DNA of 64,000 nt from NCBI GenBank assembly GCA_951406725.2, contig OX597834.1, forward strand, positions 14,694,001 to 14,758,000, written 5' to 3'. The notes under the pieces are model-generated. The model worked only from the letters and a program-made list of their open reading frames with translations. It had not been told where the DNA came from and did not search any database. Position 1 is the first letter of the stretch; the number at the start of each line of letters is the position of its first letter. The position numbers were made by a program, and so were the translations under genes. Of this stretch, positions 8,370-44,672 are shown piece after piece. The stretch comes from Octopus vulgaris. Its lineage: Eukaryota.

Positions 8370-8707
8370 CTATACACGCGCACAGATGCTCGCGCATATA
8401 TACCTTCGTATTTGGCTAAATTTGATTCTTCTAAATTATTCTAGCGCCTCAGGCTTGAATACCTGGAGCACTTCAAACTCAAGACTATGCATTGGTGAAA
8501 ATCCTTTTCCTTATAATCATATACCTATGTACGTTTAAATATTTGTTGTGCAAGATTTTTTATGTGAAGTCGTTTGTTGAAACAGATATTGTTGTATTTA
8601 GGAATGGTCATTTTGTCAGTTTAGCCAATAAAAACACACGCACTATATATTTGGTGTTACTTTGCTTCAGTGTTATTTATTTTTTACATTAATCTTAATC
8701 TTATTTC

Positions 8708-8752
8708 GGCCAGAGTTCTTTCGTCACACTCCTGTGACCGCATCAGTGGTCC
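8708..8752 (-). ncRNA. Hammerhead-like motif inside the 8531-8796 insertion
   Basis: Minus strand: ggacca-CTGATGC-g-gtcaca ggag tgtgac-GAAA-gaac-TC-tggcc. A9C deviation; perfect 6-bp stem II. Confidence 0.6.
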
Positions 8753-8823
8753 TTTGTTTTCTTCTTACTTATTTGTGTCTCTCCTTACTAACTGGCATAT
8801 GTATACGTGTCTATATACATATA

Positions 8824-20069: not shown

Positions 20070-20122
<53 letters not shown>

Positions 20123-20201
20123 ATTGCAGCGTGGAAGGTGTTTATAAGCCATTTAAGAAACACACAAAAGCTGTTCGATTCACTTCAACATTTAAGTTTA
20201 A

Positions 20202-20251
20202 TTTGTCAAAATATTTTCGTCGCTAAAATCCGCGACCTGTTCACTGACAAA
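20202..20251 (-). ncRNA. Hammerhead fold, G3:C8 variant (minus-strand copy)
   Basis: Exact reverse complement of 20267-20316. Confidence 0.68.
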
Positions 20252-20266
20252 AATGCAGCACGGGTT

Positions 20267-20316
20267 TTTGTCAGTGAACAGGTCGCGGATTTTAGCGACG
20301 AAAATATTTTGACAAA
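20267..20316 (+). ncRNA. Hammerhead fold, G3:C8 variant (plus-strand copy)
   Basis: tttgtca-GTGAACA-g-gtcgc ggatttta gcgac-GAAA-ATAT-TT-tgacaaa: 7-bp stem I, 5-bp stem II, palindromic stem III region. Confidence 0.68.
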
Positions 20317-20479
20317 TTAAACTTAAATGTTGAAGTGAATCGAACGGCTTTTGTGTGTTTCTTAAATGGCTAATAAACACCTTCCACGCTGCAATTGTTT
20401 TCGTTTCACACACGATCTCAGATCAAATTACTTGCTTTACATCTCCCTATATATATATATATATATATTATTAAACGAG

Positions 20480-20584
20480 ATGGATTTTATATTAAGAAGG
20501 ATGTATTAAACAATATGGATTTTATATTAAGAAGGATGTATTAAACAATATGGATTTTATATTAAGAAGGTTGTATTAAACAAT
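20480..20584. repeat. 35-bp tandem repeat x3
   Basis: atggattttatattaagaaggatgtattaaacaat at 20480, 20515 and 20550. Confidence 0.95.
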
Positions 20585-20849
20585 ATAGATCTATATACAC
20601 AGTGTTTGAATGAAAAGGTGAACGACCGAAGCTACAAGACATCTCTTCTGACAAGGGTCTGAATTGATGTTAATAACAACAACAGCAGCAAGAGAAACAT
20701 CATCAGTCGCAGTAACAGCAATTAACTGAAGCCACATCAGCAATAATAGAAAGCTTAACAGCAAAGATGTCATTAACACTGTTAATTTTTTTTGTTTTTT
20801 TTAGATTATAAAAGAGGTGATGAGAAGAAGACAATAATTGCTACAATAA

Positions 20850-29287: not shown

Positions 29288-30535
29288 AAAAAAATTTATG
29301 TGTGTATGTTATTGTACTTGTGTTTGTCCCATTGATGTGTTAGTTCTACAAATGGTACTGGCAAAATAATTATTATTGTTGTTTGTCTCCTCATTAGCTG
29401 TTTCGCTCATAAACATACACATACATATCGTACTCTAACCACTAGGCCATGTGCCTCGACGGCAAAATAATTACCAGACGTAAACGGATTGAGTCCTAGG
29501 GTTAATTTGTTCGAGTAAACACTTCAATGTGGTGTCTCTTGTCGGCCGCATTTCAATAGATGAACAAAAAAATACGAACAAGTAGAATTTGATAGACAAA
29601 ATTCATTACCATTCATTGAGCGTCGGAAAAAAAATTCCTTGAATAATTTCTTTCATAATTTGGTACAAAGTATTCAAGTGTAGATGAATTCTGTTTTGTC
29701 TCTCTTCCCATCGAGCGAGCCAAATCAACAAACACAAGGGCATAAATACATCAACATGCCATTTTAGGGAAAGCAATTAACAAAGGATCCTGGTTATGAA
29801 GCTACGATACGAAGGAGTATTAAAACAATTTTTCAATAGGCTTACATGCAGTATATTTAAAACGCAGTATAGCCAACACTTGAATTCGATCCGATGTAGA
29901 GACCGATATAAATTCGACAACATTTGTTGATTTGTGTTTTTACGTCACTTCTCTATATTCTGCAGTATCAGCAATAGTTATTTATTGCGGCGTTATGTCT
30001 ATATAATAAATAGATTCTATTTCTTATCATCTTACTCTAAGGAAAAGAATGAAAAAAAGCATACAAACCAGCGAGACATACATTTCCTTAGAAATTGTAA
30101 GCGATTAGGTTGACCACGTCGTTTGGCTAGTGTTTATTGTATGAATTTAAGCAAGAACTATGACAAAAGATCTATGGCATAGATTTCAAAGAGAATAAAA
30201 TGTTCTACTCTTGAATTATTTACGGGATGATGCATCGTGTTCTACGAGTACCGCGGATTGTATTACGTCAACTGTGTTATGGATAAATGTCACGTGTACT
30301 ATGCTGGTACTCTCTTTTACTCTTTTACTCTTTTACTTGTTTCAGTCATTTGACTGTGGCCATGCTGGAGCACCGCCTTTTGTCGAGAAAATCGACCACA
30401 GGACTTATTCTTTGGAAGCCTAGTACTTAGTCGATCAGTCTCTTTTGCCGAACCGCTAAGTTACGGGGACGTAAACACACCAGCATCGGTTGTCAAGGGG
30501 GATGTTGTGAGGACAAACGCAGGCACACAAACCCA

Positions 30536-30592
<57 letters not shown>

Positions 30593-30596
<4 letters not shown>

Positions 30597-31632
30597 TCGC
30601 TCCTTCCAAGTTCAAGTTAATGGTTCGCGGTCCGACGTCTCTAGTGCGAGCAGTGGCGTGCCTCAAGGTTCAGTGCTTGGGCCCTTGTTGTTCTTAGTCT
30701 TCATAAATGACTTGCCCGACGACCTCACGCAACACACCCTTCTATTTGCCGACGATATCAAACTGGTCGCTCCTCGCGGTAGTTTAGAGGATCTTCGTCG
30801 ATGCCTCCACCAAATTTGGAAGTGGTCTAACGATTGGGACCTGTGTCTGAACGTGTCAAAGTGCTGTCATCTGCTTGTCGGCTCTACTCCTGCAACTCAA
30901 CTTGATTTCGAGCCGGGTCGTCTGCTGCTGGAGAGGACCGATCAGGTAAAGGACCTGGGTATCTTGGTGGATTCCTCCTTTTCGCCTTCGGCCCAGTGCG
31001 TCCATGCTGCCAAAAAAGCGCGCGGAATTCTGTTTTTGATTCGACGGTCATTCGGAATGCTCACAGCAGCCATATTCCTGCCACTCTATGTCACGCTGGT
31101 GAGACCCATATTGGAGTATGGGATTCAAGCCTCTTCTCCTTATCTCCTCAAAGACATACAGCACCTCGAAAGAGTCCAGAGGCTGGCTACCCGCATGGTT
31201 CATGGTCTCAAAAATTTGTCCTACGAAGAAAGGCTGAAGACGCTCGACCTTTGTTCTCTTGAAAAACGCCGCCGCCGTGGTGATCTCATTCTCACACACA
31301 ACATCATAAGCGGGAAGTGTAACCTCTCGAAAGAGCTGTTCTTCACTCTTGCTCCGGAGCGTCGGCTGCGGGGTCATTCCGAAAAGCTCTACCTGCGACG
31401 ATTTCATCTCAATCGAAGGAGAGGAGCTTTCTCCGTCCGGATTGCGGATCCGTGGAACAAGCTGCCAGACGAGATGGTGAAGATGCCGACGACCGCTTTG
31501 TTCAAAGCCTCCCTGGACCTCAAGTGGCCTGAACTCTTTACATGAACACCACCCTGTACTTAACTCCATGTCCCCCTACATGGCCTTGCTATTTGCTTTT
31601 GAGCCAAATAACTAACTAACTAACTAACTAAC
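30593..31632 (+). mobile_element. 5'-truncated CR1-group LINE with 3' hairpin and (TAAC)n tail
   Basis: RT C-terminal half; 3'UTR stem CCATGT/ACATGG (31566-31583); (TAAC)6 at 31609-31632. Confidence 0.92.
30595..31545 (+). pseudogene. Non-LTR reverse transcriptase fragment (CR1-like ORF2 C-terminal half), uninterrupted frame, no genuine start
   Basis: GVPQGSVLGPLLFLVFINDL, LFADDIKL, KDLGILVD, LVRPILEY, LERVQRLATR, RRRRGDLI, FSVRIADPWNKLP. Confidence 0.92.
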
Positions 31633-44399: not shown

Positions 44400-44435
<36 letters not shown>

Positions 44436-44464
44436 CATTATTGTTATTATTATTACCATTATCC

Positions 44465-44510
<46 letters not shown>

Positions 44511-44524
44511 CATTATTATTATTA

Positions 44525-44555
<31 letters not shown>

Positions 44556-44672
44556 CATTATTATCATTATTATTATTATTATTATTACTATTATTATTAT
44601 CGTTATCATTATTATTACTATTATTATTAATATCATTATTATTATTATCATTATTATTTTCATTATTATTAA

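Follow-up and report, generated by a model that had tools for sequence, protein, structure and literature searches.

The inverted repeat at 20122–20396 of the 64-kb window (the whole stretch of octopus DNA analysed here, to which all coordinates refer) is likely to represent a single insertion of a Penelope-like element (PLE), in which a tailed forward stub of its pLTR adjoins a partial copy in inverted orientation. The motif carried by both arms would then be the minimal hammerhead of this element, in which the 3:8 core pair has been flipped to G3:C8, probably cleaving weakly in the element RNA and predicted to be trapped at this locus. On sequence grounds, it is an unusual natural core variant within an ordinary PLE insertion geometry, for which the comparative support is good and the support for activity indirect.

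The two arms of the inverted repeat span 20122–20253 and 20265–20396, each comprising 132 bp, and are separated by an 11-nt spacer with two mismatches between them (20172/20346 and 20146/20372). These recomputed values agree with the preliminary description, which had reported a 132-bp hairpin with two divergent hammerhead folds and a G3:C8 pair in each arm, whereas the extent given there was too small for the element itself. The forward pLTR stub (20253–20447, + strand) includes the loop and runs 51 nt past the mirror point, exhibiting 93–96% identity to the pLTRs of a partial tandem copy (L171). With this forward copy starting at 20253, the 11 nt that look like a loop constitute its 5′ extension, and the 5′-end analysis places this start 2 nt downstream of the inferred capped transcription start. 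The beginning of the element ORF is found at 20366–20447 (+), where the window translation indicates first codons frame-shifted by small deletions; the same ATG opens a long ORF in L171 and L133. The last 51 nt (20397–20447, +) form a one-sided tail, about 57 nt long in other copies, of a type described in the available text of two reports (PMC8557442, PMC11167929). The left arm (20122–20253, − strand) is a tail-less inverted partial pLTR copy with its outer end at the inner of the two fixed 3′ ends of the family. As read from the sequence, (TA)n target microsatellite borders the insertion on the left (20072–20121) and on the right (20448–20468). Directly right of the element we also observed a 35-nt unit repeated about 3.5 times in tandem (20469–20590), and further along the window a LINE-type reverse transcriptase fragment (30511–31542, +; Pfam RVT_1, E 1.5e-14).

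The minimal type I hammerhead motif of the right arm (20267–20316, +) is built from a 7-bp stem I (20267–20273 with 20310–20316), the core GUGAACA (20274–20280) with G3 at 20274 and C8 at 20279, an extra G at 20281, stem II (20282–20286 with 20295–20299), the residues G12–A14 (20300–20302), a palindromic 6-nt helix III (20303–20308) and U17 at 20309. This re-derived layout puts the predicted cut after 20309 (+), the position proposed before. In the left arm, folding and descriptor search identified the mirror motif (20202–20251, −), with its core at 20244–20238 and the predicted cut between 20209 and 20208. Read literally, the core of the arms is GUGAACA and not CUGANGA with C3 and G8. The residues U4, G5, A6, A9, G12, A13 and A14, the A15.1–U16.1 pair and H17 are all present, each site being retained in 204–217 of 217 aligned copies. 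Likewise, stems I and II, G10.1–C11.1, the extra base after position 9, the palindromic helix III and a Watson-Crick 3:8 pair (G3:C8) are in place, and the motif sits in the pLTR of a PLE; the extra base is G, whereas the published consensus has H.

A hammerhead descriptor admitting any Watson-Crick 3:8 pair and requiring at least 5 bp in stems I and II yielded two matches in the window, one per arm, compared with none in 60 Markov-resampled 64-kb windows, with both strands considered. The Rfam scan gave no match at the gathering score. When a single arm was folded, 11 of 12 stem pairs reached pairing probabilities of 0.93–1.0, with the outer pair at 0.5. The predicted dimer fold amounted to −27.2 kcal/mol versus −31.3 kcal/mol for the most stable co-fold.

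Searching the octopus's own genome (2.8 Gb) at the DNA level returned 289 candidates, and the 40 that were scored showed identities of 93–100%. A 22-letter pattern leaving positions 3 and 8 free matched the genome 6,024 times with no match for the control. C8 was present in 5,686 of these matches (94%), leaving 338 without it, and inspection by eye found G3/C8 in 95 of the first 100 matches listed. The 217 aligned copies, pooled from differently biased searches, comprised 202 with G3/C8, 9 with G3/G8, 2 with C3/C8, 4 others and none with C3/G8. The genome search proposed earlier to establish whether GTGAACA is the family consensus has thus been answered affirmatively.

The form of the insertions varied in a characteristic manner. 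A close inverted partial arm was detected in 14 of the 29 other top copies and was missing from the remaining 15; its outer end lay as in the present hairpin (arm position 130–136) in 13 of the 14, with varying inner breakpoints. By eye, target duplications of 11–13 bp surrounded whole hairpins at 6 of 30 loci, indicating that each hairpin corresponds to one insertion event. Where the preliminary description had seen a hairpin carrying two hammerheads, the frequent close inverted arms with variable inner breakpoints point to a by-product of Penelope-type insertion and not to a two-ribozyme unit; the recent origin it suggested is upheld, the insertion being young. At another locus (L047), a 26-nt piece with the 5′ half of the hammerhead was amplified in tandem to at least six units.

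Short, palindromic, TA-flanked and present in thousands of copies, the repeat shares several traits with a MITE or foldback DNA transposon, in which case the hammerhead-like stretch would be due to chance. Instead of symmetric and fixed terminal inverted repeats we found asymmetric ends with a one-sided tail, variable inner breakpoints and variable 5′ truncation, and the descriptor was silent in the resampled windows. The contiguity with an RT/GIY-YIG ORF, together with the canonical hammerhead that a sister family has at the corresponding position, refutes this origin for all practical purposes. Non-LTR retrozymes, characterized by head-to-tail hammerhead units devoid of an ORF, do not match the family either, as its copies are scattered through the genome as single or inverted stubs, in contiguity with an element that encodes protein.

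Judged from its sequence, the hairpin derives from the 3′ end (pLTR) of an EN+ Penelope-like element of putative Neptune type, a label drawn from the linker. One locus (L032) contains the C-terminal end of the ORF with a C-x3-C-x2-C linker and GIY-YIG, followed by a 3′ UTR of about 1 kb, the motif and the tail. Of the 30 best GIY-YIG/linker loci, 29 had the motif at a downstream distance of about 1 kb and in the same orientation, invariably with GUGAACA. GIY-YIG was recognized by Pfam (E 2e-5), and the linker, which conforms to CX2-5CxxC, was found in P0001. L097 contains YVDD within a frame of 1,025 aa, and the partial tandem L171 has 92 nt between the core and the downstream ATG that opens into the long ORF. 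Searches of the element ORF against Pfam RVT_1 and the PDB gave no match, so that the RT assignment is a putative one based on motifs of PLE RTs, namely YVDD and its neighbours. With the RT assigned in this way, the element has one ORF in which the RT is joined to GIY-YIG at the C-terminus, and its copies exhibit partial tandem pLTRs, an inverted 5′-truncated copy, a one-sided tail and microsatellite targets. For EN+ PLEs this domain order, the linker, partial tandems, an inverted 5′-truncated copy, a one-sided tail and (TA)n targets have been described, with a CxxC-type linker common to Neptune and Nematis (PMC8557442).

In the predicted fold of the full 329-nt hairpin, the hammerhead stems had a probability of 0.0, the transcript folding into the long duplex. 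Ribozyme and hairpin are therefore mutually exclusive in a read-through transcript, and the earlier notion of a ribozyme plus dsRNA in one transcript breaks down once both arms are read. Whichever strand is read, transcription reaches the antisense arm before the sense arm and yields a single sense motif, so that the two motifs would be unable to pair into a dimer. We predict this genomic copy to be inert, its hairpin being of little importance by itself. A function of the hairpin at the locus, either as a two-ribozyme foldback element or as a source of long dsRNA and siRNA, is very improbable: the 132-bp near-perfect duplex, at −232 kcal/mol, would suit such a role, and some of the other copies with a close inverted arm could supply small RNAs that silence the family, yet the inner breakpoints are unique to each copy, about as many copies lack a close inverted arm, the hammerhead stems are lost within the hairpin, and PLE insertions usually take this form (PMC8557442). 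The repeat is also present in sequencing runs labelled organisms A–D, all eight runs covered being assembled contigs without readable starts, ends or strand; among the matches listed, G3/C8 letters occurred in loose-end strings of A, C and D.

For the 134 distinct copies with an anchorable 5′ region, 26 of the 5′ ends fell at −59 relative to the cut. A non-templated G preceded this start in 23 of the 26 (P 2e-11 at 25%; e.g. L002, L006, L015, L024), presumably the result of the RT copying the cap at the transcription start. The −59 position is the probable capped transcription start of the PLE; a literature search on cap-derived extra G residues found no paper, and the Penelope promoter has been located inside the pLTR (PMC2377424). 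As far more copies begin at this probable cap site than at the predicted cut, most stubs would derive from uncut RNA. A splice acceptor had also been considered for the 5′ boundary and was dropped, as copies begin before the AG and have only one extra G in common.

We mapped 5′ truncation ends around the predicted cut using 217 matches, 100 of them listed, alongside a downstream control of 146 matches, of which 61 were listed in the same genome range. The analysis covered 60 loci from searches and 52 fetched regions, clear small indels being removed by eye; an upstream truncation control was excluded from the breakpoints, as loop variants of old subfamilies dominate there. Truncations accounted for 97 of 119 rows, 90 of which lay within −9 to +19. 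At −1 to +2 of the cut we counted 21 of these 90 ends (19 loci) versus 8.3 expected, with a scan-corrected P of ~0.0008 under a null of uniform breakpoints with the observed flanks that ignores microhomology-guided joining. A second peak was observed at +14 to +16 (17 versus 9.3 expected), and the 3′ base of stem I (+7/+8) accounted for 4 of the 90. In three copies (L198, L286, L289) the ends of both arms lay within 1 nt of the cut. For a sister family with C3:G8, ends were obtained from 278 matches, 100 of them listed, using 30 loci and 40 fetched regions from entries 31–83; here 30 of 55 ends fell at −2 to +2 versus 15.2 expected, with six of the +2 ends deriving from three palindromic junctions. 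The end peak fits low-level cleavage, which by extrapolation would affect about 1 in 100 copies, and RT stalling at a three-way junction would give a similar peak.

The sister family shows 55% identity over RT-EN with alignable N-termini, and carries C3:G8 at the homologous place, together with A-U for G-C in stem II, U17 or C17 and a 6-nt helix III. Its core deviates from the consensus family-wide by a C at position 9. The window itself contains a stub of this sister PLE (8519–8792, −) with C3:G8, C3 at 8746, the C at position 9 and the predicted cut after 8713; another sister-family match, at 44429–44663, was weak and was rejected as an (AAT)n repeat. In a third PLE family (L108–L127), U3:A8 occurs at 13 of 30 GIY-YIG loci, where helix III is palindromic and stem I is weak and of A-U type. 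From the metagenome scan, which yielded two loci from 78 candidates, one of them of informative length, an element on a metagenome contig (L416) is 41% identical and has C3:G8 150 nt behind EN. Further minimal hammerhead candidates with C3:G8 or U3:A8 were noted at L165:5320 and 5628, L166:3025 and 5748, and L119:27. Together with the prevalence of C8 across the genome, C3:G8 at the homologous place in the sister supports the natural G3:C8 hammerhead-type family that the preliminary description had put forward.

Within the family, frequent subfamily-level changes affected 4 of 8 sites in loop II, about 6 of 60 in the flanks and 0 of 42 in core and stems, with sites counted by eye (Fisher P 0.0003 and 0.04). 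For the 338 copies lacking C8, the first 100 entries listed were counted by eye: position 8 was G in 44, T in 40 and A in 16, and none of the 100 was C3/G8. G3/G8 was found in 4 of 24 old copies, chosen independently of that site, compared with 1 of 54 middle and 1 of 132 young copies (P 0.002). Unlinked variation at positions 3 and 8 had been named beforehand as an observation that would contradict the family; it occurs in part, in that position 8 alone varies in the old lineage. Divergence was 4.6% for old G8 and 4.8% for old C8 copies with no other distinguishing site, indicating mobility of an old source element whose core was mismatched; the tree was uninformative on polarity. The G3/G8 copies of the old subfamily (L396–L415, L172, L318, L322) are more numerous than neutral decay gives. 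Across these comparisons, G3:C8 looks like a true covariant.

We tentatively entertain the further possibility that a natural, catalytically active G3:C8 hammerhead became fixed in a young PLE family, whose copies would record both cleavage in vivo and a path from C3:G8, as in the sister, via a mobile G3/G8 to G3:C8. Rather doubtful in our assessment is a catalytically dead hammerhead descendant in the same element, kept as a fold for RT or protein binding, or as a 5′ UTR or promoter element, in which drift via G3/G8 would have fixed G3:C8 and RT stalling would account for the end peak. Such a descendant would be compatible with the mobile old G3/G8 lineage, with uncut RNA as the source of most copies, with the Anolis PLE, for which RNA-seq gave no read ending at the cleavage site and hammerhead-killing mutants still inserted (PMC11167929), and with the poor cutting of min-HHRs in vitro (PMC4209133). 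It accounts less well for a Watson-Crick pair kept or restored in all younger subfamilies (G3/C8 in 181 of 186 younger copies), for the unchanged remaining core bases and for the location of the peak, which coincides with the cut instead of the 3′ base of stem I.

Returning to the single PLE insertion with a weakly cleaving minimal hammerhead, we propose that the element RNA would start with a cap 59 nt upstream of the cut and that the RT would initiate at two fixed sites within the first ORF codons, copying toward the cap, and thus giving rise to stubs of about 200 bp. The inverted arm and the one-sided tail may result from priming on both nicked target strands or from a template switch. The hammerhead would require a second copy, dimerizing via the palindromic helix III, or the protein of the element; it might cut a small share of the RNAs and be dispensable for individual jumps. 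Should G3:C8 cut, nature would be using a core pair familiar from rescue mutants made in the laboratory, and searches by descriptor or Rfam in which C3 and G8 are fixed would be overlooking entire families with thousands of copies. With C3:G8, U3:A8, G3:C8 and G3/G8 lineages in one genome, each offering copy ends that can be counted at both the cap site and the cut, in vivo cutting by PLE hammerheads and its purpose become testable; if the motif is active, compensatory evolution of a ribozyme active site would be legible within a single genome.

Our literature search, with partial coverage and hence room for an earlier record, found no natural G3:C8 hammerhead, and it found no cephalopod PLE hammerheads. 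The insertions closely resemble those of Neptune- and Nematis-type EN+ PLEs (Craig et al. 2021, PMC8557442) in GIY-YIG, linker, tandems, inverted copy, tail and targets, with a tail of about 57 nt in the octopus family versus 30–40 nt in the elements described there. Min-HHRs in PLE pLTRs occur as opposite-strand pairs 100–700 bp apart and have low activity, with a U3-A8 variant in Schistosoma mansoni (Cervera and de la Pena 2014, PMC4209133). As far as the available text of that study extends, the octopus motif shares with them type I, the extra base between 9 and 10.1, G10.1-C11.1, the palindromic helix III, the common U17 and the pLTR location, and differs by G3:C8 in place of C3:G8 or U3:A8, by an extra G where H is given and by a 7-bp stem I. 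U3-A8 is a natural 3:8 covariant named by Perreault et al. 2011 (PMC3088659), where a Watson-Crick 3:8 pair is likewise kept by a double change and, in the available part of the paper, U3-A8 is the only one named. The earlier statement that engineered G3:C8 double mutants regain activity is borne out as to rescue, which was partial only (PMC11167929, PMC3884650); such C3G/G8C rescue has been reported in hammerheads including one from a PLE (PMC11167929, PMC8495972, PMC3884650). A close counterpart is the Poseidon element PAc of Anolis (Frangieh et al. 2024, PMC11167929), in which a hammerhead at the ORF start and a tail are described, the tail being explained by internal RT initiation at two positions within the first codons, in line with the two fixed 3′ ends of the octopus family. 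The same two core changes were introduced into PAc by engineering (C3G/G8C), whereas in the octopus family the swap arose naturally and is shared, as a fixed state, by thousands of copies, with its activity predicted.
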